A stretch of 64,000 nt of DNA, taken from NCBI GenBank assembly GCA_945935525.1, contig CAMERI010000002.1, positions 188,482 through 252,481 of the forward strand, read 5' to 3'. The notes below the pieces were generated by a model. The model was not told the DNA's origin and did no database searches. It saw nothing but the letters and a program-made list of their open reading frames with translations. Within the stretch, counting starts at the first letter, position 1; each line of letters opens with the position of its first letter. This document shows, piece by piece, positions 8,574-63,957 of the stretch. The translations under genes and the position numbers were made by a program. This stretch comes from an uncultured bacterium (GTDB lineage Bacteria > Bacillota_I > Bacilli_A > RF39 > UBA660).

Positions 8574-11500
8574 TTACTTTGCTCCCCAAGTGACACATCC
8601 GTTTGTTACATTACTTGTATTGTTTTTTACACAGGTTACGTCTGATGCCCATCCCCAGCCTGGTGAATAAGTTGTAAATTCATTACTCGATGATTTTCCT
8701 TGAATAGTAACTTGTTTTAAATTATTATTTCTAAATGCATCCCAAGATATTGATGTTATACTTTTCGGTATTGTTACACTTGTTAAATTATTGCTTTCAA
8801 ACGCATGACTATTTATTGTCGTTACTCCACTTGGTATGATAATATTCTTATTCTTTCCACCGTAACTTACTATTGTTGTTTTATCTTCACTGCCATCAGT
8901 ATTTCTTTTATAAATAAATGCTTGTGAATCTGATAGTTCATTATTATTGAATGCTTGTTCTTGTATTGACGATACACTATTTGGTATTGTTATACTTGTT
9001 AATTTATTATTTGCAAATGCTGAGTTTCCTATCGTTGTTACACTACTTGGCAGTGTTATACTTGTTAATTTATTATTTGCAAATGCGTAATTGCCTATTG
9101 ATGTTACACTATTTGGTATCGTAATGCTTGTTAAATTATTATTTGAAAATGCATAAATACCTATCGATGTTATTTTATTTGATAAAGTTACACTTGTTAA
9201 ATTATTATTTAAAAATGCATAATTTCCTAATGTCGTTACACTATTTGGAATTGTTAAGTTTGTTAACTTATTATCTGAAAAGGCCGAATTTCCTATTGAT
9301 GTAACTCCGCTTGATATTGTTAAACTTGTTAATTTATTGGCTCGAAATGCATTTTCTCCTATTGAGGTTACACTACTTGGAATTATTACACTTGTTAAAT
9401 TATTATTTTCAAATGCTGAACTTCCTATTGATGTTACACTATTTGGAATTATTACACTTGCTAAATTATTTTTTTCAAATGCTGAACTTCCTATTGTTTT
9501 TATACCATTTGGTATTTTAACTTCTTTATTTTTTCCACCATAACTTATAATTGTTGTTTTGTCTTCACTGCCGTCAGTATTTCTTTTGTAAATAAATGCT
9601 TGCGAATCTTCTAATTGATTATTGTTAAAAGCACTATGTCCAATGCTTTTTACACTCTTTGATATATTTATATTTGTCAATTTATTATTTTCAAATGCTG
9701 AACTTCCTATTGATGTTACGCTATTTGGTATTGTTATACTTGTTAATTCATTATTTTCGAATGCCCAATTCCCTATTGATGTTACACTATCTGGTATTGT
9801 TATACTTGTTAATTTATTATTTGAAAATGCATAAATACCTATTGATGTTACACTACTTGGTATTGTTATACTTGCTAAGTTATTATTTGCAAACGCTGAT
9901 CCACCTATTGATGTTACACTATTTGGTATTGTTATACTTGTTAATTCATTATTTTTGAATGTATAACTTCCTATTGATGTTACACCATTTGGTATTGTTA
10001 TACTTGTTAATTTATTATTTTTGAATGCTGAACCTCCTATTGATGTTACACTATTTGGTATTGTTACACTTGTTAATTTATTATTTGAAAATGCCGAATT
10101 CTCTATTGATGTTACACCATTTGGTATTGTTACACTTGTTAAATTGTTATTTGAAAATGCATTACTTCTTATTGTTGTTACACTATCTGGTATTGTCACA
10201 CTTGTTAATTTATTATTTGAAAAAACACCGTATTCTATTGTTGTTACACTATTTGGTATTGTTACATTTGTTAATTTATTATTTGAAAATGCATTACCTT
10301 CTATTGATGTTACACCATTTGGTATTGTTACACTTGTTAATTTATTATTTGAAAATGCCGAATTCTCTATTGATGTTACACCATTTGGTATTGTTACACT
10401 TGTTAAATTATTATTTGAAAATGCATTACCTTCTATTGTTGTTACACTATTTGGTATTGTTACACTTGTTAATTTATTATTTGAAAATGCATAACCTCCT
10501 ATTGATGTTACACCATTAGGTATTTCTACTTTTTTATTCTTACCACCATAACTTACTATTGTTGTTTTATCTTCACTACCATCATTATTCCTTTTGTATA
10601 TAATAGCTTGTAAATCTTCTAATTGATTATTATTAAAAGCTCCGTTTCCAATATTTTTAACACTCTTTGGTATATCTATATTTGTTAAATCATTATCTTT
10701 GAATGCATCATATGAAATATTCTCTATAGTATCAGGAATAATTACTTTCTTTAATCCTCGTCCTGCAAAAACATTTGAATAATATGAGCATGCATAGTGT
10801 TTTTTTTCTAATGATGTTATTTTTACTCCATTTACTTTTGAAGGAATTATTAATTCTTTAGGGCATTTATCATTTGTATTTGAATAATACTCTATAATAG
10901 CACTTCCAGATACACCAAAACATTCATCTGGTGGTACTATAAGATTCTCTATTGAATCTAATTTATTATCTTCTGTTAATTTAATTGTATTTGTAAATTC
11001 TGTTAGAGAACTGTCGATGTAAATTATTGAGTCATTTGTAATATTTGATTCTTTCTTTTGTGTTATTTCAATATTCTTTGTATCTAGTGTATTTCCATTG
11101 CTATCTTTTACATATAATTCGTGTTTACCTGAAACTATTCCCGATATTCTTACATAACCATTTTCATCGGTAATACCACTTTTTACGTCTGAATGTAGTT
11201 CTACTGTCATATTAGCAAGTGGATTATCATTTTGATCAACAACTCTTGTATACATAGTATATTCTGTTTGAAATGCTAGTTTTGTAGAATCTTCTATGTT
11301 AATTACACCATTAAATTTCTTTCCTTGATTGTAGTCTTGTGCTTTATTTAATTCTTTAAATTCGAAATTTAATGTTATAGTTTGTACTTCACCTGGATAT
11401 ATTATTATATTTTCAGATATTGCATTCTTGCTTGAAGGAACTGTTTTATTTTGAAAATTTATTGTCGCACAAGTATCAGTACTTGATTCACATTCTAAAC

Positions 11501-11813
11501 TCATAACTAGTTCATCATTAGTTATCTCATTTACTAAATCTTTCCAGAAAATAGTATAAAATGCATCTAATGTACCGGTATTTTCTATAGTGATTGTTTT
11601 TGTAGCTTTCCATCCTGGACTTATGTTTACTCCATTAATTGCTGTACCATCAGTATAAGTTAAACTTAATGTACCTGTTTGTACTACTTGGTCTTTTACA
11701 TCTTTATTAACTAAAGTTGCTGCAAAATATGCATATGAGAAACCAATTGTCGCTAAAAATAAAAATACTATTCCTATTCCAAATACTATTTTTTTATCAT
11801 TTAAATTTTTCAT
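8574..11813 (-). CDS. large secreted/cell-surface protein with about 30 BspA-type leucine-rich repeats
   Basis: N-terminal TM/signal segment; central array of about 23-aa repeats ([22 protein letters not shown]); a 26-aa module [26 protein letters not shown] occurs three times. Confidence 0.8.
8890..10560 (-). repeat. tandem 69-bp coding repeats (LRR units) inside the surface-protein gene
   Basis: Units of the form cctattgatgttacac(t/c)atttggtattgttacacttgttaatttattatttgaaaatgc recur many times; this periodicity generates the spurious plus-strand ORFs 9311-10519. Confidence 0.7.
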
Positions 11814-13887: not shown

Positions 13888-13964
13888 GGGCCTGTAGCTC
13901 AGCTGGTTAGAGCGTTCGTCTGATAAGCGAAAGGTCGATGGTTCAAGTCCATTCAGGCCCACCA
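13888..13964 (+). tRNA. tRNA-Ile (anticodon GAT)
   Basis: Cloverleaf with 7-bp acceptor stem GGGCCTG/CAGGCCC, anticodon loop CTGATAA, encoded CCA. Confidence 0.9.
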
Positions 13965-13973
13965 TTAATAAAT

Positions 13974-14049
13974 GGCCCGTTGGTGAAACGGTTAACACAC
14001 ACGCCTTTCACGCGTGCATTTATGGGTTCAAATCCCGTACGGGTCACCA
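13974..14049 (+). tRNA. tRNA-Glu (anticodon TTC)
   Basis: Acceptor stem GGCCCGT/ACGGGTC, anticodon loop CTTTCAC, encoded CCA; close to Bacillus tRNA-Glu. Confidence 0.9.
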
Positions 14050-39270: not shown

Positions 39271-40458
39271 CTAAAAATTAAACATTAACCATTCTGGTTT
39301 ATATATCATTAGTATTCCAATTGTAATCATTATAAGTCCACCTATTAAGTGTGAATACTTTCCATATTTATTTGATATTACTTTTATCTCTAGTGTTTTC
39401 ATAGCAATTATAAATATTATAATATCATCTATCATAAAGAATAAAATATATATTAATGAATAAAGTATTTGTCCAAACTTGCTTACTTCATTTATTGTTA
39501 ATATTTGTGTGAACATTACAGGTAAGCCTAATGAGCAAAGAAGTTCTACGATATTAACTGAAGCTGCTAATAATATTATTCCTAAAAGTGCTAGTATGAA
39601 TGATTTTTCTTTAACAATTTTTTGAATTGATTTTATTATTTTCTTTCTATTTTTTGTATCTACTACTTCACATCCATCATCTTTTTTAAAGAAGAATGAG
39701 TTTACTTGAATTACACCAAATAAAACGGCTACGAATGCAATTGCAACTCTAATATATAGTATTTTATTTAAGAATACTGCTAGATTTAACCAAGATATTA
39801 GGAATAAGAAATATACTAGAGCTGATGATACTAAGAATGTTATGCCTAGAGTCCACATTCTTTTTCTATTTTTCATTCCAAGTAACATTGATATAAGAAA
39901 TAAAAGTATCCACATTGCACAAGGATTGAATCCATCAACTAAGCCAATCACAACTGCTGATAGACCTATTGAAACATCTTTTATTTTTTGTTTACCAAGT
40001 ATAGGTATTTTCACTTCTGATTCTTGATAATCTGTTTTTGTTTCTTCTTCGTTTTTATCTTCAACTATTCCAAGATAAATACCTACTTTATCTTTATAAT
40101 TTATATTTTTATAATATTCTACTGCATTTTTTATTCTTTCTGGAGTTATTTCTTCATCGAATCCTGAGATTACTGTTTCTCCAATTATCAAATATGGAAT
40201 TCCACTAGATGTATCATTTAATATGTCATGCACTTTTGAATATTTTTCTTGATTATCTTTGTTATACCACACTTCATATCTATGTATTTTTATGTAATCA
40301 TTTTTCTTCAAATAAGATTCGAACCATTTTTCCTCTTCTTTACAGTGAGGACATCCATCACCATAAAATAAATAAATATTTAAATCTTTTTCACTTCCAA
40401 ATACTAAGAATGGAATAAATAGAAGTAAAAATAATAATACTTTTAATGTCTTTTTCAT
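39271..40458 (-). CDS. thiol:disulfide interchange protein: extracytoplasmic thioredoxin-like domain fused to a CcdA/DsbD-type membrane domain
   Basis: Signal peptide; GCPHC active site; membrane domain contains the NPCAMW motif. Confidence 0.7.
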   Translation of the reverse strand: MKKTLKVLLFLLLFIPFLVFGSEKDLNIYLFYGDGCPHCKEEEKWFESYLKKNDYIKIHRYEVWYNKDNQEKYSKVHDILNDTSSGIPYLIIGETVISGFDEEITPERIKNAVEYYKNINYKDKVGIYLGIVEDKNEEETKTDYQESEVKIPILGKQKIKDVSIGLSAVVIGLVDGFNPCAMWILLFLISMLLGMKNRKRMWTLGITFLVSSALVYFLFLISWLNLAVFLNKILYIRVAIAFVAVLFGVIQVNSFFFKKDDGCEVVDTKNRKKIIKSIQKIVKEKSFILALLGIILLAASVNIVELLCSLGLPVMFTQILTINEVSKFGQILYSLIYILFFMIDDIIIFIIAMKTLEIKVISNKYGKYSHLIGGLIMITIGILMIYKPEWLMFNF

Positions 40459-40709
40459 AGTTCACCTTCTATAATCCTTATAAATTCTTCCTTTTTGTGT
40501 TCTCCACATAGTCTGGTTATTTCTTTGTCATTTTTGTAAAAGATAAATACTGGAAGAATTTTACCTACGTTAAATTTTTCTATATCATCAAAATCAAAGT
40601 CGTAGTCTTCATATTCTATATCTTCATATTCTTTTTTTAACTCATTTATTATCTTATTCATTATTATGCATGATGGACATCCTAGTGAGTTTATTTTTAC
40701 TATTTTCAT
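40455..40709 (-). CDS. small thioredoxin-family protein
   Basis: CPSC redox motif; 84 aa. Confidence 0.6.
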   Translation of the reverse strand: MKIVKINSLGCPSCIIMNKIINELKKEYEDIEYEDYDFDFDDIEKFNVGKILPVFIFYKNDKEITRLCGEHKKEEFIRIIEGEL

Positions 40710-40717
40710 AATTGCTC

Positions 40718-41470
40718 CTATTTTAATGATTTAGATTTTTGTATTTTGTATGTACATTTTACTATGAATTTCCTAGTGAATAGTCTATTTGCAAATACTC
40801 CTAGTTTTATAGTAAATCCTGGTATAATTATTAATTTATTTTTATTCATACACTTTAATGTATACTTTACAACATCTTTACTTTGTAGTGATTTTACTCC
40901 AAATTTTACGTGTGCTCTTTCATTAAAGCCAGTGTCAACTGGACCAGGACATAGGATATGGATTTTTACATTACTTTTATCTCTTCTTAATTCTTCATAT
41001 ATTCCCATGCTTAGATTATAAACATATGATTTGGTTGCATAGTATGTTGACATAAGTGGTCCAGGCTCAAATGCGGCAGAGGAAGCAACATTAAGTATTT
41101 CACCTTTATCTTTCTTAACAAAGTCTTGTAAGAATAGTTTAGTTAACATATGATAAGTAATAACATTTAAATCTATCATATTAAGTTCGTTATCTAAATC
41201 AGTATCAATAAATTTACCAAATGCTCCGAATCCTGCATTATTGATTAATAAATCTACTTTTCCTTTATACTTATTATACAATTTATAAACATTTTCTTTT
41301 ACACTTAGATCCATTACTTCGATTTCAACATTTGTTTTCAATTCTTTAGCAAGTTTTTCTAATTTATCTTTTGATCTTGCTACCAAAATTAAATCATAGC
41401 CTTCTTTTGAAAGTTCTTTTGCAAAATCTGCTCCTAGACCATTAGAAGCTCCTGTTATCAAAGCTTTCAT
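40718..41470 (-). CDS. short-chain dehydrogenase/reductase (SDR)
   Basis: TGASNGLG cofactor motif and a YxxxK catalytic region. Confidence 0.85.
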   Translation of the reverse strand: MKALITGASNGLGADFAKELSKEGYDLILVARSKDKLEKLAKELKTNVEIEVMDLSVKENVYKLYNKYKGKVDLLINNAGFGAFGKFIDTDLDNELNMIDLNVITYHMLTKLFLQDFVKKDKGEILNVASSAAFEPGPLMSTYYATKSYVYNLSMGIYEELRRDKSNVKIHILCPGPVDTGFNERAHVKFGVKSLQSKDVVKYTLKCMNKNKLIIIPGFTIKLGVFANRLFTRKFIVKCTYKIQKSKSLK

Positions 41471-41508: not shown

Positions 41509-41534
41509 AAAAAAAAGATTGTTGTTACAATCTT
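41509..41534 (-). terminator. Rho-independent terminator ending the vWA/kinase/PurA-like operon
   Basis: AAGATTGT-tgtt-ACAATCTT followed on the minus strand by TTTTTTTT. Confidence 0.55.
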
Positions 41535-42460
41535 CTTCCTTTGTTTGTATTTGGTTTTAATGATAAACTCATTCCTATATCTGTGTTAACATTTGCTATC
41601 TCAGTACTATTTGATAATTCTTGTAATGACTTTGTTACTCCTTCAATTCTAGTAGTAGTTTGCCCTCTTCCTTTCATATCAAGAGCATATACTTCTAAAT
41701 CTTGTTTTTGAATAGCTATAACTCCTAATATTAAATCTATAATTGCCTTTTCTTCTGGTATTCTAACTACATGCTCTGGAGGTAATACCTCTTTCCATGC
41801 ATCAGTAATATCACTTCTAAATTTATTTCCACAGTATCTATTTAGCATTACAAATACATTATCTTTAAATTTCTTATTTAATGCTTCAAATGGTTTATAT
41901 CCTTTTTCTGCTGGAATTCCTATACCTTCTGCTTGACTAAGATTTAAATCTTTATAAGGTGCTTCATCCGCTACAAAGAATACCATTGGATTTGCATCTT
42001 TTCTAAATTCTGTATTGTTTGCTAAGTAATGTGCCATTAATTCATATGATTCTTGTACTTGTCCTCCCCCAGCTCCTTCAAGAACCAACTTTTCTAAATT
42101 ACTATCTATTTCTAATCCTTTAGCAAAGTCATTTATTTGTATTGGATAATCATCTGTGTACGCGTCTCCAACTGCACAAATTGATATATCAAAATCTTTT
42201 AAATAACCTTTTTGTTCTAATTCTCCATAGAACATTGGAAATTTATCATATACTAATCTTGCAAAATTAATATTTGAACCTGTAACATCTAATACTATTA
42301 CAATTGGTGTTTTAGCATCACTTTTTATTATTTTTCCCTTTGGTAACATTTTACTATCTAGTGAAGTACTATTTAACTTGCTTGATGAATAATCGCTTGC
42401 TCCCCAACTATCATAACTACTTCCACTATAAACATCTCTATCATAACTATAACTTCCCAT
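41525..42460 (-). CDS. von Willebrand factor A (vWA) domain protein with a Ser/Tyr/Asp-rich N-terminal tail
   Basis: MIDAS-like VLDVTGS motif; N-terminus MGSYSYDRDVYSGSSYDSWGASDYSSS. Confidence 0.7.
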   Translation of the reverse strand: MGSYSYDRDVYSGSSYDSWGASDYSSSKLNSTSLDSKMLPKGKIIKSDAKTPIVIVLDVTGSNINFARLVYDKFPMFYGELEQKGYLKDFDISICAVGDAYTDDYPIQINDFAKGLEIDSNLEKLVLEGAGGGQVQESYELMAHYLANNTEFRKDANPMVFFVADEAPYKDLNLSQAEGIGIPAEKGYKPFEALNKKFKDNVFVMLNRYCGNKFRSDITDAWKEVLPPEHVVRIPEEKAIIDLILGVIAIQKQDLEVYALDMKGRGQTTTRIEGVTKSLQELSNSTEIANVNTDIGMSLSLKPNTNKGRRL

Positions 42461-42469
42461 ATAATCCTC

Positions 42470-43504
42470 CTAATTTACTTTTCTTTCTAGTGTTTTAAAT
42501 CTTTGATGACCATACACTTCATTTCTTATTTGTATTAGTTCGTTCCATAATGCCCACGCATCATTTTCTTTTTCACTTAGTAATTTTCTAATGAATGACC
42601 TTACTTTCACATCTACATTTACTGGCAAAGCTACCCTATCCATATCACCTCCTAATAAATCTATTGCTAACATACCAACTGCATATATATCCACATTTGG
42701 AATGACTTTTGCATCCTTACCGACATATTTTGGTGAGAATGTCTCATTTACTATTTTATATTTACTCGTTTCTTTATTAGCTTCTTCAATACAAAGTGAA
42801 TAATCAGTAACTGACACATTGTGAGTAGATGGGTCAATTAAAACATTTTCTCTTTTTATATTTCCATGAACGATTTTCTTAGAATGCAAATATCCAACTA
42901 CTGAAAGTAATCTTTCTAATATCCAGCAAATATGTTCACCGCTTAAATTTCCATAATATTTTTTTATTTCTTCTATAGTGAGTCCATCTTTTCTTTCTAC
43001 TATTACGGCATTTCTGCCATTTATTTTTGCTTTTGAAATTAATTTTGGTATTGATAAATGATCTAACTCACTTAGAATTTTTCCTTCTTCTTTTATCAAA
43101 TCATCATCTGATTCATCGCTTGCAATTTTCAATTCTATTAATTGTTCATCAAGTAGTCCCTCATAAACTGTTGCAACGTCTTCACATCTTGATACTTTAT
43201 AAAATTTATATTCTCTTCCTTTTAATTCAAATTCAAATAATGGAGATGCTCTTTTTAAAAGTTCTTTTTCATCTAATATTTGGTATGTTCCATCTTGAAT
43301 TTCTTTTTGTGCGAGAGTGTAGTACTCATTTAATATTTTTGTTGCTTTTTCTGCTAACGCTTTTTCTTCTTCTTTTGCTAAATCTGGATGACATATTTTT
43401 GCATAATTTCTATACACCTTTTTTATTTCATTTTCATTACTACCAAATATCTCAATTGGCCTTTTAGCATTTATAAGTAACTCTGTAATTTCTTTGATAG
43501 ACAT
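42470..43504 (-). CDS. J-domain protein fused to a protein-kinase-like domain (catalytic HRD replaced by HGN, so probably a pseudokinase)
   Basis: J-domain IKKVYRNYAKICHPD (HPD motif); kinase-like lobes with beta3 Lys (IELKIA), alphaC Glu, catalytic loop VHGNIKRENVLID, a TDY segment in place of DFG, and SPKYV. Confidence 0.6.
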   Translation of the reverse strand: MSIKEITELLINAKRPIEIFGSNENEIKKVYRNYAKICHPDLAKEEEKALAEKATKILNEYYTLAQKEIQDGTYQILDEKELLKRASPLFEFELKGREYKFYKVSRCEDVATVYEGLLDEQLIELKIASDESDDDLIKEEGKILSELDHLSIPKLISKAKINGRNAVIVERKDGLTIEEIKKYYGNLSGEHICWILERLLSVVGYLHSKKIVHGNIKRENVLIDPSTHNVSVTDYSLCIEEANKETSKYKIVNETFSPKYVGKDAKVIPNVDIYAVGMLAIDLLGGDMDRVALPVNVDVKVRSFIRKLLSEKENDAWALWNELIQIRNEVYGHQRFKTLERKVN

Positions 43505-44043
43505 TTTATATTTTCACCTCCATCTAATATGATGTCTGCATCTTTCTTTTGTGGTTCAATGTGTGTTCTATATATGCATAAAATTACATCATTAAAGTAT
43601 TTTCTTATTTCTTCTTCACTAATTCCATAACTTTTATCTCTTTTTATTCTTCTTTCAAGAGAAATGTTTTTATCTATTTCAATAAATACTTTTAATGTGT
43701 CTCTTAAATCTTTTAATGCATCTATCGTGTGTAATCCTTCAAATATTACTCTTCCATTTGTTCTAATAATTCTTGATTTGTCTACTCTTTTATTTGCTGA
43801 TAAATCATATGTTGGAATTATTACTTTTTTCTTTTCAATTAAAGTTTTTGAGTCATTTACAAACTCTTCAATATTAAAAGCATTTGGTAAGTCCATTAAG
43901 TATCCTTTTCTAGATAGTGGTATATCTTTTTTATCTTTAAAATACCAGTCTTCCTCAAAATGACTCATATTATATTCTTTCGATAAATAGTTACTTAATG
44001 TAGTTTTGCCTGAGCAAGTCATTCCAGAAATTATAATATTCAT
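43471..44043 (-). CDS. uridine/cytidine-kinase-like P-loop nucleoside kinase
   Basis: Walker A GMTCSGKTT; IPTYDLSANKR resembles the Udk VPIYDFSTHSR motif. Confidence 0.65.
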   Translation of the reverse strand: MNIIISGMTCSGKTTLSNYLSKEYNMSHFEEDWYFKDKKDIPLSRKGYLMDLPNAFNIEEFVNDSKTLIEKKKVIIPTYDLSANKRVDKSRIIRTNGRVIFEGLHTIDALKDLRDTLKVFIEIDKNISLERRIKRDKSYGISEEEIRKYFNDVILCIYRTHIEPQKKDADIILDGGENIKCLSKKLQSYL

Positions 44044-45437
44044 TTTAAAATCCTTTCTAATTTTTGATTTCTATTTGGCCCTACGCCTATTAAAGATATT
44101 TTTGAATTTATTAAGTATTCTATTAGTTCTATAAAATTTATACATTCTTCTGGTAAATCTTCTACTCTTTTAATATCACTTATATCTTGATTCCATCCAT
44201 CAATTGTTATATATAATGGGAGCGTTTTAGCTAAATATTTTCTTAAATCCGGACTATTTCTTTTTATATTTTTAATTATTATTTTATTTCCATCTTTGTA
44301 ATATTCGAATGTTTCTTTAAACTCTTCATCTATTTGTCCTATGTAAATGTATGAGTCACAAATCTTAATTTCTTTAAATGGTGACAATCTATCAAGTGCC
44401 GATAAGAAGAAATAATCATTTTTATTAATAGAGTTAGCATATCTTGTGAGTACTGCATCAAACCATCCATATCTTGGCCTTCCTTGATAATAACTTTCTG
44501 ATTGGTTTTCATCCTTTATTAATGCTTCAACTTTCTTATCATAAGTTGGAAGAACTCCCATACCATGTCTACTTGTTAATGCAGATATAGCACCTATCTT
44601 ATGAATATTAGTATTTAATTCGTTTGCTAAAACTATCCCATTTTGATTTGTTGTATTTAATAATGTTGTGTTTGGCCTTATACCATAATCTCTATCAATT
44701 AATAACCCCTGTGAGCCTTCAAATACAATATCACTGTCAGTGTGAAATGTTCTTATATCTTTTGTAACATTGATGAAACCACTTCTTAGTAAATTCTCAT
44801 AGCATCTAATTATGTATTCTCTATTTTTAGATTCAGTTAAGTGTGATATGTCATCAGTTCTAATGAGTCTGCTTATAAGTTCTTTATTTTGAGAACTCTT
44901 ATAAAATTTTTGAGCATAACCAAATAATTCTTTTAATTTTTCTTTGTATACTTCACTATTGAAGTCACTCATCAATAGTTTAATTCCTGTTTCTTCAAAT
45001 GTTCTTGTTACTTCACTTACACCACTTCCAACAGAACCCCTTCTATTATTCTTACTTTCAATTTCTCTTAAATTATCAATTAATTTGTGATAAGGTGTCA
45101 CGATAGGTACTTCACTATCTACAAATACTCTTTTTAATATTTCTTCTCTTGGTACTTTTGTTTTTTCACTTAAGAAATTACTTTCACTAATTATGTTAAA
45201 GAGATTTACCACTGTGTATTTCGATAGAAAAGTTCTAGTGTCTTCATTTAGAAACGCTGAACCCAGTTGACTAAATTTGTGTGTTAGACCATCATTGACA
45301 ACTGTATGACTTGCTTGACTTCCACCATTATATCTAACGTTTTCTTTTATATCTTTAGTACTTGCTAGATAATCAACTAAAGTCCCTTTTCCTTCGTCAC
45401 CAAATAATGTTCCAGATACTATATAACTATTATTCAT
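44040..45437 (-). CDS. divergent adenylosuccinate-synthetase (PurA)-family ligase
   Basis: PurA motifs GDEGKG(T), QASHT (PurA has NAGHT), GSVGSGVSE (PurA has TGRGIGP), ALDRLS (PurA has KLDVL) and a C-terminal IGVGPNRNQ. Confidence 0.75.
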   Translation of the reverse strand: MNNSYIVSGTLFGDEGKGTLVDYLASTKDIKENVRYNGGSQASHTVVNDGLTHKFSQLGSAFLNEDTRTFLSKYTVVNLFNIISESNFLSEKTKVPREEILKRVFVDSEVPIVTPYHKLIDNLREIESKNNRRGSVGSGVSEVTRTFEETGIKLLMSDFNSEVYKEKLKELFGYAQKFYKSSQNKELISRLIRTDDISHLTESKNREYIIRCYENLLRSGFINVTKDIRTFHTDSDIVFEGSQGLLIDRDYGIRPNTTLLNTTNQNGIVLANELNTNIHKIGAISALTSRHGMGVLPTYDKKVEALIKDENQSESYYQGRPRYGWFDAVLTRYANSINKNDYFFLSALDRLSPFKEIKICDSYIYIGQIDEEFKETFEYYKDGNKIIIKNIKRNSPDLRKYLAKTLPLYITIDGWNQDISDIKRVEDLPEECINFIELIEYLINSKISLIGVGPNRNQKLERILK

Positions 45438-46329
45438 ATAAGAAACTCCTCCATCCTTTTAATGCTTTTTCTAATTTAGGTCCTTGTATTTCATCTTGTA
45501 ACATAAATGTTTTATATCCATATAAATACATAAGTTCTAAATCTTCCATATCAGGTAATGAAATTTCGGACTCTTTATTTAACGATGAAAATAATCTCGA
45601 TGCACATATGGTTGATGGATATTTTTTTATTATTTCTTGTAATGCTTTTAAGACATTTATATCATCTTTACATTCGAGCCATAAATCATCTCTTGCTGCC
45701 ATAGGTTGTATTGCTATATTATTTGATAAAGCAAAGCGTAAACCTTTTAATGATTCTATTTTTGCAACTATTGTTGCATTTGTATTTAAAGAAAGTATTT
45801 CTACTAAATCATCAAATGATTCTAAAAATGATGCCATATAATTATTCATTCCTAATTCTTTTGATTCTTTTATGAATTCTTTATCAAGTTGAGTTAAGTA
45901 TCCTTCTATTATTAAACTTTTTGCTTTTACATTTACTGATTGTCCTTTTCCTACAGCTCTTTCAGGAGGTTCTTCTAAAATAATTTTATTTCCTTTTGTA
46001 TGCATAATATTTGATGTATTCCCACCTCTAAAAATTACTTTTGCTGGATATTCTATATCTATTTTGTGATTTAGTTCTATTGCTTCATAACTAGTATCTG
46101 CCCAACTATTAACTCTTAGTTGTCTTCCCTTTAAATCTATCCATATTTTTTTGTTAAATTTTTCTTCTAATGATTTTAATATTTCAATTATTTTCTTTTC
46201 CTCTAAAAGTTCATTCACTCCTGTATTAAATCTTACTTCACTAATGTATTCACTTGACATCATTTCTTCTACTGCCTTCTTGTTATGAATATGTGGAAGA
46301 GTTCCAATTAATTTTATATCCTTTTTCAT
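45430..46329 (-). CDS. pyruvate-kinase-like TIM-barrel protein lacking the PK C-terminal domain
   Basis: Collinear with the PK barrel motifs: KLIGTLP (TIGP-like), EVRFNTGV (RLNFSHG-like), IDLKGRQLRV (DTKGPEIR-like), AKIESLKGL (KIEN-like), MAARDDLWLEC (MVARGDLG-like). Confidence 0.55.
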   Translation of the reverse strand: MKKDIKLIGTLPHIHNKKAVEEMMSSEYISEVRFNTGVNELLEEKKIIEILKSLEEKFNKKIWIDLKGRQLRVNSWADTSYEAIELNHKIDIEYPAKVIFRGGNTSNIMHTKGNKIILEEPPERAVGKGQSVNVKAKSLIIEGYLTQLDKEFIKESKELGMNNYMASFLESFDDLVEILSLNTNATIVAKIESLKGLRFALSNNIAIQPMAARDDLWLECKDDINVLKALQEIIKKYPSTICASRLFSSLNKESEISLPDMEDLELMYLYGYKTFMLQDEIQGPKLEKALKGWRSFLYE

Positions 46330-46338
46330 ATTTATTCC

Positions 46339-46362
46339 TTTATGTGTATTTTTTACACTTTA
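46339..46362 (-). promoter_or_regulatory. putative NrtR-like operator (copy 2), 15-30 nt upstream of the PK-like gene's start codon
   Basis: TATGTGTATTTTTTACACTT is identical over 20 nt to the copy at 47078-47099; core palindrome GTGTA-n5-TACAC. Confidence 0.4.
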
Positions 46363-46382: not shown

Positions 46383-47057
46383 TTAAAATATGCTTTTCTT
46401 TGTTATTTTTGAATTGAATTTATATAACTTAGCAGGTTTTTTTCCTTTATAAGTTATTGTTTTATTTATATCTTCAATAAGCTTTAAACTTAACATTTTT
46501 TTTCTGAAATTTCTTCTATCAATTTCTTTATTTAATATTGACTCATATACATTGTGTAGTTCTGGTAAAGTAAATTCATAAGGAAATAATGATTTTAGAA
46601 TATCACTAGATATTATATCCTTTTTTAATTCATCAATTCCTCCTTTTAATATTTCATTATGGTCATATGCTAATTTTGGAACTTCATCTAGTGAAAACCA
46701 ATCTGAGTTTGAAGTCTTGTTTGTTTTTGTTATTAGTTCTGCTTTTTTTATGTCTATAACGCCTATAAATAGTATAGCTATCAATCTTTTTATTGGTGAC
46801 CTATCTAATTTATCATAGATGCCGCATTGTCTTAACTCAATATTATCTAAACCAGTTTTTTCTTTTAATTCTCTTTTTGCCCCATCAATTAGTAATTCAT
46901 CATTATATAGTCCACCACCAGGTAATGCCCAATAATCTTTAAATGGTTCATTCGTTCTTCTGATTAATAATACTTTTGTTACTCCCTTATCAATTGTAAA
47001 TATAGTACTTACTACATGAATACCAATGTTTTTATAAAGCGGATTTTTTAATTCCAT
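46383..47057 (-). CDS. NrtR-family regulator (NUDIX domain plus C-terminal winged-helix DNA-binding domain)
   Basis: Nudix box GGLYNDELLIDGAKRELKEKTGL; C-terminal FTLPELHNVYESILNKEIDRRNFRKKM...KPAKLYKF matches the NrtR wHTH pattern. Confidence 0.7.
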   Translation of the reverse strand: MELKNPLYKNIGIHVVSTIFTIDKGVTKVLLIRRTNEPFKDYWALPGGGLYNDELLIDGAKRELKEKTGLDNIELRQCGIYDKLDRSPIKRLIAILFIGVIDIKKAELITKTNKTSNSDWFSLDEVPKLAYDHNEILKGGIDELKKDIISSDILKSLFPYEFTLPELHNVYESILNKEIDRRNFRKKMLSLKLIEDINKTITYKGKKPAKLYKFNSKITKKSIF

Positions 47058-47075: not shown

Positions 47076-47104
47076 ATTATATGTGTATTTTTTACACTTG
47101 TCAA
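47076..47104 (-). promoter_or_regulatory. consensus sigma-A promoter of the NrtR-like gene, with an operator palindrome in the spacer
   Basis: TTGACA, 17-nt spacer, TATAAT on the minus strand; the palindrome GTGTAtttttTACAC at 47083-47097 lies between -35 and -10. Confidence 0.5.
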
Positions 47105-47113: not shown

Positions 47114-47149
47114 AGAAAAATAAAAAAGAAGTTACTATTTAGCAACTTC
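47114..47149 (-). terminator. Rho-independent terminator after rny
   Basis: GAAGTT...AACTTC hairpin followed on the minus strand by TTTTTTATTTTT. Confidence 0.5.
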
Positions 47150-48688
47150 TTCAGCTCTTGTTTCTCTAATTACAACAACTTTTATTGTGCCAGGATATTG
47201 CATTGTATCTTCAATCTTTTCTTTGATTTCCCTTGCTATTTTATAACTTGATAAGTCATCAATTTCATCTGGCTTAACCATAACACGTAATTCTCTTCCA
47301 GCTTGCATTGCAAATGTCTTTTCAACGCCTTCCATTGAGTTACCTATGCTTTCTAACTCTTCAAGTCTCTTAACATAGTTTTCTAAAGAATCATTTCTAG
47401 CACCTGGTCTTGAAGCACTTAATGCATCTGCAACTGCTACTAATTCAGAAATAACATATTCAGCTTTTTTATCTCCATGATGTGATTCAATTGCATTTAT
47501 TACAACTTTATCTTCTCCATGTTTCTTAGCAACATCTGCTCCAATTTCTACATGACTTCCTTCAACTTCAAAGTCAATTGCTTTTCCTATATCATGAAGT
47601 AAACCTGCTCTTTTAGCTAATTGAACATTTTCACCTAATTCACTTGCCATTAAACCAGCTAAGTGTGCAACCTCTTTACTATGAGCAAGTGCATCTTGTC
47701 CATAACTAGTTCTAAATGCTAATTTACCAATTAATTCAACTATCTCAGGAGCAACTTTTGATATACCAAGTTCAAATAATGCTTCTTCACCTTTTTCACG
47801 AATTATTTTTTTATAATCTTCACATACTTTATCATATAATTCTTCAATTCTTGCTGGGTGAATTCTTCCATCTTTGATAAGTGTTTCAAGAGTTACTTTT
47901 GCAATTTCTCTTCTTAGTGGGTCGAATGATGATAACACAATTACTTCTGGGGTATCATCAATTATTAAATCGACTCCGGTTACAGCTTCAATTGTTCTAA
48001 TATTTCTACCTTCCCTGCCAATGATTCTTCCTTTCATTTCATCATTTGGAAGTTCTACAGTACTAACTGTTTGTTCACTAGTAACATCACTAGAATATCT
48101 TTGCATACTAGATACAATTAATTCTTTTGCTTTTCTATCTGCTTCAAGTTTTGCTTCATCTTCACGTTCTTTTAAGTAGACTGAAATTTCTCTTCCCATT
48201 TCTTCTTCTACTTTTTTTAGTATAGTTTCTCTTGCTTTTTCCTTCGAAAAACCAGAGATTTTTTCTAAAAGAGCTATTTGCTCCTTTATTATACTCTCCA
48301 TTTTTGCATCTTTTTCTTGAATTTCTTTTTGTTGTGCCAATAAATCTTTATCTTTTTGGTCTAGGTTTTTTTCTCTTTCAGTTAATAATTCATCACGTTT
48401 ATCTAAACTCTTTTCGCGGTTATCAATTCTTTGATTTAGATCATTAAGTTCTTTTTTCTTTTCCTTAATTTCTGCATCAGTTTGATTTTTTAACTTGTAA
48501 CTTTCTTCTTTTAATTCTAAAATGCCATCTCTTTTTGCTTTTTCAGCTTCTTTTTTAGCATCTTGAATTAGTTTATCAGCTTCTTTTTGTGCAGCACTTA
48601 CTTTTAATTTGTTAATTATAATCATTATGAAAGCGCCTACAAGCAATCCAACTACTACAAGCAAAATGGAGATAATTACATCATTCAT
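47135..48688 (-). CDS. rny: ribonuclease Y
   Basis: N-terminal TM, coiled coil, KH domain and HD domain; 517 aa. Confidence 0.95.
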   Translation of the reverse strand: MNDVIISILLVVVGLLVGAFIMIIINKLKVSAAQKEADKLIQDAKKEAEKAKRDGILELKEESYKLKNQTDAEIKEKKKELNDLNQRIDNREKSLDKRDELLTEREKNLDQKDKDLLAQQKEIQEKDAKMESIIKEQIALLEKISGFSKEKARETILKKVEEEMGREISVYLKEREDEAKLEADRKAKELIVSSMQRYSSDVTSEQTVSTVELPNDEMKGRIIGREGRNIRTIEAVTGVDLIIDDTPEVIVLSSFDPLRREIAKVTLETLIKDGRIHPARIEELYDKVCEDYKKIIREKGEEALFELGISKVAPEIVELIGKLAFRTSYGQDALAHSKEVAHLAGLMASELGENVQLAKRAGLLHDIGKAIDFEVEGSHVEIGADVAKKHGEDKVVINAIESHHGDKKAEYVISELVAVADALSASRPGARNDSLENYVKRLEELESIGNSMEGVEKTFAMQAGRELRVMVKPDEIDDLSSYKIAREIKEKIEDTMQYPGTIKVVVIRETRAEEVAK

Positions 48689-52868: not shown

Positions 52869-52945
52869 TGGTCGGGAAGACAGGATTTGAACCTGCAACC
52901 CCTTGGTCCCAAACCAAATGCTCTACCAAGTTGAGCCACTTCCCG
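52869..52945 (-). tRNA. tRNA-Pro (TGG)
   Basis: Cloverleaf; anticodon loop TTTGGGA; encoded CCA. Confidence 0.85.
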
Positions 52946-52951
52946 ATCTAA

Positions 52952-53028
52952 TGGTGCGCCCAATAGGAGTCGAACCCATAACCTTTTGATCCGTAGTCAA
53001 ATGCTCTATCCAATTGAGCTATGAGCGC
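52952..53028 (-). tRNA. tRNA-Arg (ACG)
   Basis: Anticodon loop CTACGGA; acceptor stem GCGCTCA/TGGGCGC. Confidence 0.85.
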
Positions 53029-53095
53029 GTTTAAATTTCCCTCGGAATCGCTTTGAAATTTTCTGTCTTGCATTTGTATTATTAATTTAACAAAA

Positions 53096-53171
53096 TGGTG
53101 GCTTCAGTTGGAATCGAACCAACGACACCAAGATTTTCAGTCTTGTGCTCTGCCAACTGAGCTATGAAGCC
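53096..53171 (-). tRNA. tRNA-Phe (GAA)
   Basis: Anticodon loop CTGAAAA. Confidence 0.85.
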
Positions 53172-53174
53172 ATT

Positions 53175-53250
53175 TGGCGGTTCCGACGGGACTTGAACCC
53201 GCGATCCCTCGCGTGACAGGCGAGTGTGATAACCACTACACCACGGAACC
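53175..53250 (-). tRNA. tRNA-Asp (GTC)
   Basis: Anticodon loop CTGTCAC; discriminator G. Confidence 0.85.
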
Positions 53251-53253
53251 ATT

Positions 53254-53330
<77 letters not shown>

Positions 53331-53358
53331 ATATTTGAAATTCACTGTACTTATCATA

Positions 53359-53451
53359 TGGCGGAGGAAAAGGGATTCGAACCCCTGCGCCAATTTCTTG
53401 ACCTCCCGGTTTTCAAGACCGGTCCCTTCAACCAGACTTGGGTATTCCTCC
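53359..53451 (-). tRNA. tRNA-Ser (TGA)
   Basis: Long variable arm; anticodon loop CTTGAAA; discriminator G. Confidence 0.85.
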
Positions 53452-53466
53452 AATAATATTTAAAGT

Positions 53467-53555
53467 TGGTGCCCCAGATCGGACTTGAACCGATATGAGC
53501 TTTTACACTCGCAGGATTTTAAGTCCTGTGCGTCTACCTATTCCGCCACTGAGGC
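53467..53555 (-). tRNA. tRNA-Leu (TAA)
   Basis: Long variable arm; anticodon loop CTTAAAA; Leu-type D-arm. Confidence 0.85.
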
Positions 53556-53563
53556 ACATAAAT

Positions 53564-53639
53564 TGGTGTCTCGCTGGGGATTCGAACCCCAGACCCCTTG
53601 ATTAAAAGTCAAGTGCTCTACCGGCTGAGCTAGCGAGAC
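53564..53639 (-). tRNA. tRNA-Lys (TTT)
   Basis: Anticodon loop CTTTTAA. Confidence 0.85.
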
Positions 53640-53658
53640 GTTCTATATGATAAATTTT

Positions 53659-53734
53659 TGGTTGCCTCGGCTGGATTCGAACCAGCGGAATGCAAGAGTC
53701 AAAGTCTTGTGCCTTACCACTTGGCTACGAGGCA
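53659..53734 (-). tRNA. tRNA-Gln (TTG)
   Basis: Anticodon loop CTTTGAC; U1-A72 as usual for Gln. Confidence 0.85.
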
Positions 53735-53744
53735 AAATTACAAG

Positions 53745-53828
53745 TGGTGGAGAGAGGTGGATTCGAACCACCGAACCCGAAGGAACAGATTTACAGTCTG
53801 CCGCGTTTAGCCTCTTCGCTATCTCTCC
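53745..53828 (-). tRNA. tRNA-Tyr (GTA)
   Basis: Long variable arm; anticodon loop CTGTAAA. Confidence 0.85.
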
Positions 53829-53831
53829 AAG

Positions 53832-53907
<76 letters not shown>

Positions 53908-53912
53908 AATTA

Positions 53913-53989
53913 TGGTGGGCGATGAGAGACTCGAACTCCCGACCCCCTGCTTGTAAGGCAGATGCTCTAACCAACTGAGCTAATCGCCC
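53913..53989 (-). tRNA. tRNA-Val (TAC)
   Basis: Anticodon loop CTTACAA; acceptor stem GGGCGAT/ATCGCCC. Confidence 0.85.
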
Positions 53990-61262: not shown

Positions 61263-62057
61263 TTAATCTTTTAAGAATTTTTCATTTACTATTTTTATAA
61301 AATTATAATCTTTCATTCTTAGAAATTTTATTTTTTTATTTTTTACAAAGCACTCTATACTCTTTACATTTTCATATCTCTTGTTTGTACCATCAAATGT
61401 AATAATTAAGTCTTTTTTGATTGGTTTAATTAATATATTCTTCTTTTCTGGAAGAACTATTGGAGTAAGCAAGTTTCTATATACTTTTGTGTTTAATGGA
61501 GCAATTGGTGTTATTTGTAGTGTGTGTAGTGTGTTATAGATAAGAGCACCATTGAAACTAGTGTTGTATGCGCTACTTCCGACTGAAGTTGAAACTAAAA
61601 TTCCATCTCCTGCAAATGTTTCTAAGAAATATCCATCTATATAAATTTCCATAGTTAAAGCATTTAATTCCATTTGTCTAATAACTATTTCATTTAATGA
61701 GAAGTGTCTTGATACTGAGTCATCAGTGGTTATTTTTGTTTCGAGTGTTCCAATATTATCAACTTTAAAATTATTTTCATTCAAAGATGACACAAAATAT
61801 TCTAAATTATCTGGTTTGATTTCCTGAAGAAAACCTAAAGTACCGGTATTTATCCCAACATAATAGATATTACTATTAAAGTTAGTATTGTTAACCATTC
61901 TTAGAAATGAACCGTCTCCACCTATTGCAATTGCTAAATCATAATTTTCATCAACTAATTCAAAATTATATTTTTCTAATTCTTCTATAAGTTTTAATTT
62001 AATCTTATATGAAACTTCATTTTCATTAGCAAATATTTTTACTTTATTGATTTTTCT
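61263..62057 (-). CDS. nadK: NAD kinase
   Basis: GGDGS/T motif and an NE/D short motif; start probably MRKINKVKIF, just after the nrtR stop. Confidence 0.85.
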   Translation of the reverse strand, partial: RKINKVKIFANENEVSYKIKLKLIEELEKYNFELVDENYDLAIAIGGDGSFLRMVNNTNFNSNIYYVGINTGTLGFLQEIKPDNLEYFVSSLNENNFKVDNIGTLETKITTDDSVSRHFSLNEIVIRQMELNALTMEIYIDGYFLETFAGDGILVSTSVGSSAYNTSFNGALIYNTLHTLQITPIAPLNTKVYRNLLTPIVLPEKKNILIKPIKKDLIITFDGTNKRYENVKSIECFVKNKKIKFLRMKDYNFIKIVNEKFLKD

Positions 62058-62061
62058 CATA

Positions 62062-62880
62062 TTATTTACCTTTGTATTTGAATAGTACACTTGGTCTATG
62101 GCCTTCTCCAGTTTTAATTTTGTCTGTTTTTTCAACTTTATTTGCTATTATTCTTCTGAATGCTGGATCTAATAATTTCTTATTAAGTATTACTTCATAT
62201 ACTTGTTGAAGTTCACCTAATGTAAAATATTCACTCATCATATTAAATACAATATCAGTGTACATAATTTTGTTTTTTAATCTTTCAATTCCACTTACTA
62301 TTACAAGTGGATGGTCAAATGCTAAAGAATCGTTTTTCACTATATCAAATTTATACCTATCAGATGTGCTTTCTTTAAGGGCTTTACTTACTACAAAATT
62401 TAGTGTTTCATTACCATTATCAAGTGTTACATTAAAACTCTTTTCATCTTCAATATAGCTAATGTTAAACCATGATGTGTTTTCATATAAAGAATCGTTT
62501 AGTTTAGTTTTGTCTACTAGGGCCATGTATGAAACACTTAGTACTCTTGTTCTTGGATCTCTATCAATACTATCAAATGTATATAGTTGTTCCATAAATA
62601 TGTTGTGTAGATTTGTTTCACTTGCTAGGACTCTTCTTGCAGCTTCTTCTGTAGTTTCAGTATTCTTTACAAATCCTCCTGGAAGACACCATTTTCCTTT
62701 AAATGGATATTCTTTTCTTTTGACAAGTAAGACACTATAAAACTTATCTTTTAATTTTCTATAATTATTTTGTACTCCGCTTGATACGCTTAATAGTAAA
62801 ACATCACTTGTTACTGATGGATGATCGTATATGCTTGCATCATAGTTTTTTAAAAATTCTTCTTCGCTTTTATATTCCAT
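62062..62880 (-). CDS. nrtR: NrtR-family NUDIX/winged-helix transcriptional regulator of NAD metabolism
   Basis: Nudix box; C-terminal FTLGELQQVYEVILNKKLLDPAFRRII...RPSVLFKY wHTH signature; embedded in the nadD-pncC-nrtR-nadK cluster. Confidence 0.8.
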   Translation of the reverse strand: MEYKSEEEFLKNYDASIYDHPSVTSDVLLLSVSSGVQNNYRKLKDKFYSVLLVKRKEYPFKGKWCLPGGFVKNTETTEEAARRVLASETNLHNIFMEQLYTFDSIDRDPRTRVLSVSYMALVDKTKLNDSLYENTSWFNISYIEDEKSFNVTLDNGNETLNFVVSKALKESTSDRYKFDIVKNDSLAFDHPLVIVSGIERLKNKIMYTDIVFNMMSEYFTLGELQQVYEVILNKKLLDPAFRRIIANKVEKTDKIKTGEGHRPSVLFKYKGK

Positions 62881-62889
62881 ATTGCCTCC

Positions 62890-63360
62890 TTATAATATTT
62901 CTATTAACTTATCTAGTATATCATTTACTATTAGTTCTTTTACCTCTTTACGTGGTTTATTTGGAACTGTTATTTTCATATCAGTGTGTGTACTATTCTT
63001 ACTATTGAATATACTTACAAATACTTCATTATCATTTCCGCTTAAATTATTTTCATCAACTCTATTTATCTTTCCAGTTATGCCAACTCCATAAGTACTT
63101 CCTGCGAACTTACTTATATTTTCACTCATTTCGTGAGCAGTTTCAATGCTATAAACAGAATATTTTTCAATAACTTTAGGGTCAACTCCCATTTTAATTT
63201 TATATTCATTTGAATAAGTAACTGCTGAAAACTTTAGAGCTTCACTTGAACCATCAACGCATGTAATAGTACTTGCAAAATATCCTCCAGTACAACTTTC
63301 CATTGATGCAATTGTTTCTTTTTTATCTATTAATTTTTTTACTACTTCTTTTTCTTTCAT
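62890..63360 (-). CDS. pncC: CinA C-terminal-domain protein / NMN amidohydrolase
   Basis: ESCTGG motif; 156 aa. Confidence 0.75.
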   Translation of the reverse strand: MKEKEVVKKLIDKKETIASMESCTGGYFASTITCVDGSSEALKFSAVTYSNEYKIKMGVDPKVIEKYSVYSIETAHEMSENISKFAGSTYGVGITGKINRVDENNLSGNDNEVFVSIFNSKNSTHTDMKITVPNKPRKEVKELIVNDILDKLIEIL

Positions 63361-63396
63361 AATACCTCTTTTATATAAATTGATTATAACACATTA

Positions 63397-63957
63397 TTAA
63401 CTAACATATAAATTATTTCTTTTAATATAGTCATAAACTTTTAAATCAATATACTTTAATACATCTTTGTTATTATTTAAGATCATGTTTCTTACAATAG
63501 TAGATGATGTCTCTTTACTTGATATTTTGTTTTTGACTATAAAGTTATAATTTTCATACTTCTTATAAATAGATTCTTCTATATCATTTCTTCTAATAAC
63601 TATTATATTGTATTTTAGAATCTCTGATACATTTTTCCATTTATCAAAATCTTTTAGTAAATCATCTCCAATAACTAGATAAATCTTATCATTTTTGTAT
63701 TCATTTTGAATATTTCTTAGTACTTGATATGTAAATTCATAATTATTATTTTTATTATCAATTACTATGTCTTTCGTTTCATATAGTTTTAACATATTAA
63801 TTCTATCTTTAATACTAATTAGATTATTTTTATTCCAGTAACTCATTGTTGGAACTATTATGACTTTATCTACATATTCTTTAAGAATCTTTTTAACTAC
63901 TTTTATGTGACCTTTATGAACTGGATTGAAACTACCTACATAAACAGCTATTTTCAT
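63397..63957 (-). CDS. nadD: nicotinate-nucleotide adenylyltransferase
   Basis: N-terminal GSFNPVHKGH (H/T)xGH nucleotidyltransferase motif. Confidence 0.9.
   Translation of the reverse strand: MKIAVYVGSFNPVHKGHIKVVKKILKEYVDKVIIVPTMSYWNKNNLISIKDRINMLKLYETKDIVIDNKNNNYEFTYQVLRNIQNEYKNDKIYLVIGDDLLKDFDKWKNVSEILKYNIIVIRRNDIEESIYKKYENYNFIVKNKISSKETSSTIVRNMILNNNKDVLKYIDLKVYDYIKRNNLYVS

Follow-up and report, generated by a model that had tools for sequence, protein, structure and literature searches.

Adenylosuccinate synthetase, PurA (EC 6.3.4.4), was long thought to have a single job, until PurZ showed that a paralogue can rewrite the DNA alphabet of phages. In the Escherichia coli enzyme (1ADE/1CG0), according to the Honzatko-laboratory structures, D13 is the catalytic base, H41 the catalytic acid, Q224 the residue that contacts the base and D333 the one that reads guanine; the 5'-phosphate of inosine monophosphate (IMP) is held by N38, T129, T239 and R143', and L-aspartate by T300/T301, R303, R305 and R131. 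In phage PurZ the counterpart of Asp13 is Ser throughout, and a 2026 study of Z-genomes counted 481 phage homologues of PF00709, of which it characterised only the PurZ/PurZ0 clade (PMC12884076). The non-PurZ phage homologues serve only as an outgroup in the Z-genome papers. Here we analyse a PurA-like gene of an uncultured bacterium (Bacillota_I; RF39; UBA660) that lies in a 64,000-nucleotide stretch of contig CAMERI010000002.1 (positions 188,482 to 252,481; assembly GCA_945935525.1), hereafter the window.

Our preferred reading, to which we assign a probability of about 0.55, is that its product is an active ligase within the PurA superfamily, a member of a distinct and ancient subfamily and not a housekeeping adenylosuccinate synthetase. 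The enzyme would most likely serve a pathway devoted to the GTP-dependent modification of nucleotides, in which the amine is not aspartate and the product is not AMP. The initial annotation of the window had described a divergent PurA paralogue outside any purine context and had compared it with PurZ. The open reading frame (ORF) that it reported proved genuine and lies exactly at the stated coordinates, and every altered motif that it quoted is present in the translation: FGDEGKGT (residues 12-19), GGSQASHT (38-45), RGSVGSGVSEV (133-143), LSALDRLS (346-353) and IGVGPNRNQ (451-459).

PF00709 covers the protein end to end (E = 4.1e-75; residues 6-458 against model positions 1-414 of 416), and among proteins of solved structure it comes closest to E. 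coli PurA (E = 4.5e-40). The NCBIfam PurA equivalogs TIGR00184 and NF002223 stayed below cutoff, with 210.4 bits against 402 and 191.5 against 395.6, respectively. As a reference we used nine canonical PurAs, from E. coli, C. difficile, S. epidermidis, Vescimonas, Azospirillum, Legionella, Arthrobacter, Bernardetia and the archaeon Haladaptatus; a PLSDB search with the PurA-like protein returned mostly canonical purA genes on chromids or mislabelled chromosomes, which were reused for this purpose. The window protein is 25-29% identical to these nine, compared with 37-62% among them, and it is equally far from the PurAs of Firmicutes (26-29%) and from that of E. coli (28%). In a neighbour-joining tree the canonical PurAs form a cluster separate from the PurA-like family. 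Source databases name relatives of the window protein 'adenylosuccinate synthetase'. The gene is the sole PurA-family ORF within the window. As had been claimed, no purine-pathway gene lies nearby: none was found among the approximately 35 window ORFs put through Pfam or NCBIfam, nor in the syntenic locus L001 (precomputed Pfam). Together with the residue signature described below, these scores and identities uphold the proposal of a non-canonical PurA paralogue.

The residues that contact IMP, GTP and aspartate were inspected in an alignment of 154 PurA-like sequences from genomes, plasmids and viral contigs with the nine canonical PurAs; three of the 154 carry N38 and are likely canonical PurAs themselves. 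The catalytic core is intact. D13, K16, H41, T239 and D333, each found in 9/9 canonical enzymes, are each kept in at least 146 of the 154 family members, and Q224 (8/9 canonical) in 150; the window protein itself has D13, K16, H41 and Q224, which are shared by 150 or more members. Asp13 itself, which stands in the GDEGKG P-loop of the window protein, is kept in 152/154. The family loci were gathered by patterns that include an Asp-containing P-loop, which makes this D13 count partly circular for the viral set; the circularity does not apply to the window, plasmid and C1-phage proteins, which were found by tblastn.

The substrate sites, in contrast, are remodelled in the same way across the family. 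N38, invariant in the nine canonical enzymes, is Q in 144/154 members, and T129, also 9/9, is C or V in 136; R143 (R in eight canonical enzymes, K in one) is mostly deleted, so that T239 alone is kept among the four ligands of the IMP 5'-phosphate. At the aspartate site, T301 (9/9) is Q or N in 148/154, R303 (9/9) is variable, R305 (9/9) is deleted in 153/154 and R131 is non-basic, and none of these four L-aspartate ligands is retained. T300, which is T in four and V in three of the canonical enzymes, is W, F or Y in most family members. Further changes affect V273 (9/9 canonical; H in 150/154), K18 (7/9 canonical; T or S in 143/154), K331 (S, C or H) and position 304 (hydrophobic), and the family has an insertion of about 20 residues relative to PurA. 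In its own numbering the window protein carries D14, Q41, V136, H291, Y316 and Q317 and has lost R305, which matches the subfamily signature. The activation machinery is thus kept, whereas the pocket for aspartate and a large part of the phosphate clamp have been remade in the same manner throughout the family. Since D13, K16, H41, Q224, T239 and D333 are kept, the reaction would be expected to start with phosphorylation of a base carbonyl by GTP, after which an amine attacks. The gene's subfamily (about 150 sequences examined) is coherent and is neither housekeeping PurA nor PurZ. It shares with PurA the fold, the length class, the P-loop and these six residues, and differs from it in the replaced ligand residues, the insertion, the sub-cutoff scores, the lack of purine context and a pairing with a vWA protein.

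The PurA-like gene stands second in a compact operon on the minus strand (Table 1). The operon is translationally coupled and comprises, in order of transcription, a pyruvate-kinase-like (PK-like) gene, the PurA-like gene, a uridine-kinase-like (Udk-like) gene, a J-domain pseudokinase gene and a vWA/MIDAS gene. Successive genes overlap by 8 nucleotides (PK-like/PurA-like), 4 nucleotides (PurA-like/Udk-like) and 34 nucleotides (Udk-like/pseudokinase), and a gap of 9 nucleotides separates the pseudokinase from the vWA gene. The initial annotation had correctly identified the Udk-like neighbour, a genuine PF00485 protein; its account of the gene context was otherwise incomplete, missing the vWA/MIDAS protein, the J-domain pseudokinase, an NrtR-type regulator, the PK-like barrel and the occurrence on plasmids and phages.

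Of the five products, the vWA/MIDAS protein turned out to be the most constant companion of the ligase. Sequence and profile searches with it found nothing in Pfam or the PDB. A single-sequence AlphaFold model was unusable (predicted local distance difference test score, pLDDT, 38.7), but an AlphaFold2 model built on an alignment of 36 homologues reached a pLDDT of 79.5, and its top Foldseek matches were integrin I/betaI (vWA) domains (E about 1e-6). A search of 1.84 billion cluster representatives assigns 1168 of them to the family at E <= 1e-10, and no fusion proteins were seen among the best 150. Conservation in these proteins is among the highest at their extreme ends. N-termini read, for example, MGGSSYDRDV in Firmicutes and MGSGSW... 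in phages, with a Ser/Tyr-rich acidic stretch after Met-Gly in the window protein; C-termini form a conserved basic or hydrophobic tail (...KGRRL in the window protein, where it is basic; ...DRL; ...EI[ST]W). In other phyla, vWA-like forms of approximately 490 residues (L054, L070, L046, L084 and others) contain an inserted domain of approximately 170 residues with the motif ...DIRASLxWNNRNDLDLH..GGWLDVDMNV.... Among 19 aligned members, one matched DUF2135 weakly and below significance (E = 0.046), and no other Pfam family fits the insert.

The J-domain protein, annotated as a Ser/Thr kinase, combines a retained HPD motif with a protein-kinase fold and matches phrog_3043 over residues 3-288. 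Its catalytic loop reads HGNIK instead of HRDLK; across the family alignment the loop is HGN(I/V) or HGAI, and the DFG Asp is not conserved. A loop lacking the HRD Asp is seen from Firmicutes through mycobacteriophage gp262. We predict the protein to be a pseudokinase or an atypical enzyme, which presumably recruits DnaK.

The PK-like protein has no C-terminal regulatory domain, and the NCBIfam pyruvate kinase models give it 47-52 bits against cutoffs of 306-432. The catalytic barrel residues of PykF are kept in its family: R32, N34, D66, K220, E222, R244 and D246 are invariant in 44/44 sequences, K68 and R73 are present in 42/44, and T278 is replaced by S. A role as a phosphoenolpyruvate (PEP)-dependent phosphotransferase is plausible because of this conservation. 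For the Udk-like protein, the best solved match is the uridine kinase of T. thermophilus (1.4e-17), and the uridine kinase model gives 103 bits against a cutoff of 180. This kinase, which the initial annotation suggested could supply the nucleotide, is a conserved operon partner in 34/36 Firmicutes loci, but it is missing from the phage and plasmid versions of the module, which makes it an accessory gene and not key to the chemistry.

Table 1 Features of the PurA-like operon and its surroundings (positions in the window).
Feature	Position	Strand	Basis or remark
PurA-like ligase, divergent PurA superfamily	44040..45437	minus	465 aa, ATG start, PF00709 and alignments
Truncated pyruvate-kinase-like TIM barrel	45430..46329	minus	299 aa, short lid, PF00224 34.9 bits, PykF match
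Uridine/cytidine-kinase-family nucleoside kinase (Udk-like)	43471..44043	minus	190 aa, PF00485 5e-17
J-domain + protein-kinase fold	42470..43504	minus	Pkinase 1.9e-18, DnaJ 29 bits, HPD kept
vWA/MIDAS protein	41525..42460	minus	311 aa, DxTGS motif, phrog_2971 match 3.8e-33, Foldseek
NrtR/AraR-family regulator (Nudix + NrtR winged helix)	46383..47057	minus	224 aa, NrtR_WHD 1.6e-21, NUDIX 5.8e-16
Predicted sigma-70-type promoter	47076..47104	minus	TTGACA-17-TATAAT, 12/12 hexamer matches, before NrtR-like gene
Putative operator 1, AGTGTAAAAAATACACAT	47081..47098	minus	palindrome GTGTA-N5-TACAC, within promoter spacer
Putative operator 2	46342..46359	minus	18-mer identical to operator 1, 13 nt upstream of PK-like start codon
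RNase Y terminator	47125-47152		
SDR oxidoreductase	40718-41470	minus	
Small thioredoxin-like protein	40455-40709	minus	
Thioredoxin-fold membrane protein	39271-40458	minus	
NAD cluster	61263-63957	minus	
NadD-like cytidylyltransferase	63397-63957	minus	NAD cluster
CinA/PncC-like protein	62890-63360	minus	NAD cluster
NrtR	62062-62880	minus	272 aa, NAD cluster
NAD kinase	61263-62135	minus	NAD cluster
12-tRNA cluster	52869-53989	minus	
tRNAs Ile-GAT and Glu-TTC	13888-14049	plus	
Leucine-rich-repeat adhesin-like protein	8574-11813	minus	1079 aa

Upstream of the operon lies an NrtR-like gene, whose predicted promoter is situated just downstream of the RNase Y terminator. The Nudix box of the encoded protein reads RELKEK, with the last Glu lost, and its closest solved structure is AraR 5bs6 (6e-36), followed by NrtR 3gz5. 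The putative operator occurs in two exact copies in the 64 kb; allowing up to three mismatches, we found three matches compared with 0.66 expected by chance. The palindrome also precedes the orthologous nrtR-like or PK-like genes in seven related loci (L001, L003, L008, L012, L013, L015 and L016), two of them without an adjacent regulator. The arrangement resembles NrtR regulons and Bacteroides AraR, in which a Nudix + winged-helix regulator likewise goes with palindromic operators that overlap the promoter, but the PurA-like operon is free of NAD or pentose genes. The cassette regulator appears to be a dedicated NrtR paralogue, one of two in the genome, because a separate canonical NrtR adjoins the NAD genes at 61-64 kb. 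That NAD cluster consists of genes for a NadD-like cytidylyltransferase, a CinA/PncC-like protein, NrtR and NAD kinase.

We followed gene order by profile searches on all fetched loci (36 from Firmicutes, 51 from other bacteria and 71 viral). The order PK-like, PurA-like, Udk-like, J-pseudokinase, vWA is found in 33 of the 36 Firmicutes loci, with unrelated flanks, and the Udk-like gene is confined to the Firmicutes cassettes. Clostridia are among the groups that share the vWA + PurA-like pair, which the pseudokinase and NrtR often accompany. Among the 51 other loci (Myxococcota, Leptospira, Candidate Phyla Radiation (CPR), Planctomycetota, Actinomycetota and one metagenome-assembled genome (MAG) labelled 'archaeon'), the vWA-like gene stands beside the PurA-like gene in 36, while 28 contain the J-pseudokinase, 11 the PK-like gene and 9 a Nudix gene. 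The viral loci comprise 69 IMG/VR contigs, many of them 100-500 kb long, and two INPHARED phage records; the vWA-like gene is immediately beside the PurA-like gene in 66 of the 71, accompanied by the kinase in 25, and 39 hold the pair alone. NrtR-type genes are also found next to the module in loci from Rhodococcus, Allorhizobium, CPR and viruses.

On plasmids, sets consisting of a hypothetical gene, the vWA gene, an 'adenylosuccinate synthetase' gene and an NrtR-type Nudix gene occur in Rhodococcus sp. DK17 (pDK3), Tsukamurella tyrosinosolvens and Allorhizobium ampelinum S4 (pAtS4e), and pRHL1 of R. jostii RHA1 carries at least a match to the vWA-like gene. Approximately 200 mycobacteriophages of cluster C1 carry the kinase (gp262), a hypothetical/vWA protein (gp263) and a 'PurA-like' protein (gp265), and a 196-kb Vibrio phage has the vWA + PurA-like pair. 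The chromosomes of the plasmid and phage hosts should carry their own purA, so these copies would be additional. The C1 phages (Bixzunavirus, for example Phox gp265) share with the window the subfamily signature, the kinase/vWA-like/PurA-like order and the families phrog_1211, phrog_2971 and phrog_3043; they differ in that the ligase is only about 32% identical to the window protein and the PK-like and Udk-like genes are absent. Full-text literature searches found no functional study of the C1 'PurA-like' genes and no description of the module. On the conjugative plasmid pAtS4e (L161, 489584-505427), the NrtR, hypothetical, vWA-like and PurA-like genes stand beside a MoxR-like AAA ATPase, DUF5682 and DUF4132, with VgrG of the type VI secretion system near. 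A locus from a Leptospiraceae MAG (L036, 4187-12452) holds, in this order, 7TM-DISM/PP2C (SpoIIE), Nudix, kinase-fold, vWA-like, PK-like and PurA-like genes and one for an unannotated 326-residue protein; this arrangement comes closest to a TerY-P-like triad joined to nucleotide enzymes.

In the mechanism that we propose, the PurA-like enzyme would phosphorylate the lactam carbonyl of a nucleobase with GTP, as PurA does at O6 of IMP, on a 6-oxopurine or an analogous lactam, and an amine other than aspartate would displace the phosphate to give an N-substituted nucleotide. In Firmicutes, the Udk-like kinase would make the nucleoside monophosphate from the nucleoside, and the PEP-dependent PK-like barrel could regenerate GTP or phosphorylate the product further. 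The vWA/MIDAS protein would be an obligate partner, as scaffold, regulator or substrate, and the J-domain pseudokinase would connect the system to DnaK. The NrtR paralogue would repress the operon through the two identical operators until a nucleotide-like ligand appears. Judging by the patchy and mobile distribution over plasmids and phages, such a pathway would probably make or restore a special nucleotide when phage and host are in conflict or the cell is under stress, and would not serve bulk AMP synthesis.

Several points weigh against this reading. The nucleotide and amine substrates are not readable from the sequence, and with T239, D13 and Q224 kept, the nucleotide may be IMP and a weak adenylosuccinate synthetase activity may persist. 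The gene could also be the only PurA-family gene of its genome. Because phages and plasmids carry the module without a PK-like or Udk-like gene, the three-enzyme pathway may be specific to Firmicutes. Finally, a purely small-molecule pathway leaves the constant pairing with the vWA gene unexplained.

Four other explanations were weighed against the dedicated nucleotide-modifying ligase. An ordinary adenylosuccinate synthetase that drifted in a small AT-rich genome, where it is the organism's only purA, would account for the full-length PF00709 match, the intact catalytic residues, the lack of a further PurA-family ORF in the 64 kb and the source annotations of its relatives. Drift within a lineage, however, fits poorly with a signature that recurs in some 150 sequences of Myxococcota, Actinomycetota, CPR and phage origin, in which residues shared by all nine canonical PurAs, the archaeal one included, are changed or deleted. 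The protein is also no closer to the PurAs of Firmicutes than to that of E. coli, neither purB nor another purine gene was found among the annotated window ORFs, the operon partners are not purine enzymes, and relatives reside on plasmids and phages whose hosts should have their own purA; we regard this explanation as highly improbable. Membership in the housekeeping PurA family was rejected on the missed equivalog cutoffs and the replaced IMP-phosphate and aspartate ligands. A PurZ-type enzyme, which would make 2-aminoadenine (Z) precursors from deoxyguanosine monophosphate, is scarcely credible. Both families are PurA paralogues borne by phages and altered in substrate specificity, the window protein matches phrog_1211, labelled '2-aminooxy adenylosuccinate synthetase', and RefSeq gives homologues of C1 mycobacteriophages and a Vibrio phage that PurZ-type name. 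The analogy drawn in the initial annotation breaks, however, at the defining residue, where 152/154 family members have Asp and all phage PurZ have Ser (PMC12884076), and the PurZ model NF038379 gives 28.4 bits against a cutoff of 300. PurZ also still condenses aspartate, whose ligands the family has lost, and it stands beside datZ, mazZ and dpoZ; no datZ-, mazZ- or dpoZ-like gene is present in the cassette, where the neighbours are the PK-like, Udk-like, J-pseudokinase, vWA and NrtR genes. The PurZ names that both RefSeq and Pharokka give to the homologues of Mycobacterium phage Phox (L157, 152403-153731) and Vibrio phage VB_VaC_TDDLMA (L158, 48248-49360) are probably mis-annotations spread from phrog_1211, because Asp13 is kept in them and the aspartate ligands are missing.

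The two remaining explanations concern the biological role and the amine. A conflict system, serving bacteria as anti-phage defence or phages as counter-defence, is possible but rather doubtful; it is compatible with the nucleotide-modifying ligase, as it addresses the role and not the chemistry. Here the vWA protein and J-pseudokinase would sense a signal, whereupon a toxic or signalling nucleotide would be made or inosine nucleotides produced by deaminase defences would be re-aminated. The patchy distribution, variable flanks, megaplasmids and many phages agree with such a role, as does regulation by a paralogue of NrtR, a family that typically senses ADP-ribose. The module further resembles TerY-P, a validated anti-phage triad of the vWA protein TerY, a Ser/Thr kinase and PP2C, in placing a vWA/MIDAS protein beside a kinase-fold protein, and PP2C and Nudix genes adjoin it in the Leptospiraceae locus. 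It differs from TerY-P in that the window kinase lacks the catalytic Asp and has a J domain and that a nucleotide ligase is part of the module. No PADLOC model matches the PurA-like, PK-like or vWA-like proteins, the window cassette lies among housekeeping genes (RNase Y, tRNAs, ParCE) and not in a defence island, and occurrence in both hosts and phages gives no direction. TerY-P membership itself was rejected, given the lack of the HRD Asp, of PP2C in the window cassette and of a PADLOC match for the vWA-like protein. A protein-directed ligase is of low probability but high value. In this proposal the vWA partner would provide the amine: removal of Met would expose its invariant N-terminal glycine, and the alpha-amino group of that residue would be joined to the purine nucleotide through N6; the J-domain pseudokinase with DnaK and the Nudix/NrtR protein would control or reverse the mark. 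The glycine is a candidate nucleophile because the ligase has lost the residues that bind the carboxylates of its usual amine substrate: the basic residues for the two carboxylates of aspartate have given way to aromatic or hydrophobic ones, which would fit a peptide or a neutral amine. The vWA-like gene is the one constant neighbour, the sole one in the viral loci reduced to the pair, and over 130 vWA-like sequences of bacterial or phage origin have a Met-Gly start ahead of the MIDAS motif, most of them with an aromatic and an acidic residue within about 14 positions. The proposal is nevertheless purely inferential, and we know of no case in which a protein is nucleotidylated through N6. The Firmicutes cassettes place the vWA gene three positions from the PurA-like gene, no fusions were seen among the best 150 vWA representatives, and the N-terminal Gly might instead serve the MIDAS site or stability. 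If true, it would mean a new kind of post-translational nucleotidylation common to bacteria, plasmids and large phages.

If the preferred reading of a dedicated nucleotide-modifying ligase holds, the family would represent a third and much more widespread branch of the PurA superfamily, whose vWA partner family has approximately 1,200 representatives at 50% identity. This branch would keep the activation chemistry with the aspartate pocket gone, and its fixed companions would be a MIDAS protein, a pseudokinase that recruits a chaperone and a regulator that senses nucleotides. The occurrence of the module in gut Firmicutes, soil Actinomycetota, megaplasmids and some 200 well-studied and genetically tractable mycobacteriophages would make a new nucleotide or nucleotide-protein chemistry directly testable, and the annotations 'adenylosuccinate synthetase' and '2-aminooxy adenylosuccinate synthetase' on the PurA-like genes would need correcting.

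As a whole, the window looks like a typical Gram-positive chromosome of low GC (about 27%), with ParC/ParE, RNase R, HisS, FtsA, RNase Y and YunB, and the closest genome match in the species collection is 69% identical. No terminator was found between the vWA-like gene and the following gene for an SDR (short-chain dehydrogenase/reductase) oxidoreductase, after which genes for a small thioredoxin-like protein and a thioredoxin-fold membrane protein continue on the same strand. The SDR gene is probably outside the module, because it is syntenic in close Bacilli relatives only. Elsewhere in the window, the leucine-rich-repeat adhesin-like protein gave partial matches to HupY/LrrG and Gli349 that were far below cutoffs. 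Two further tRNA genes stand apart from the 12-tRNA cluster, which explains a local rise in GC to 0.36.

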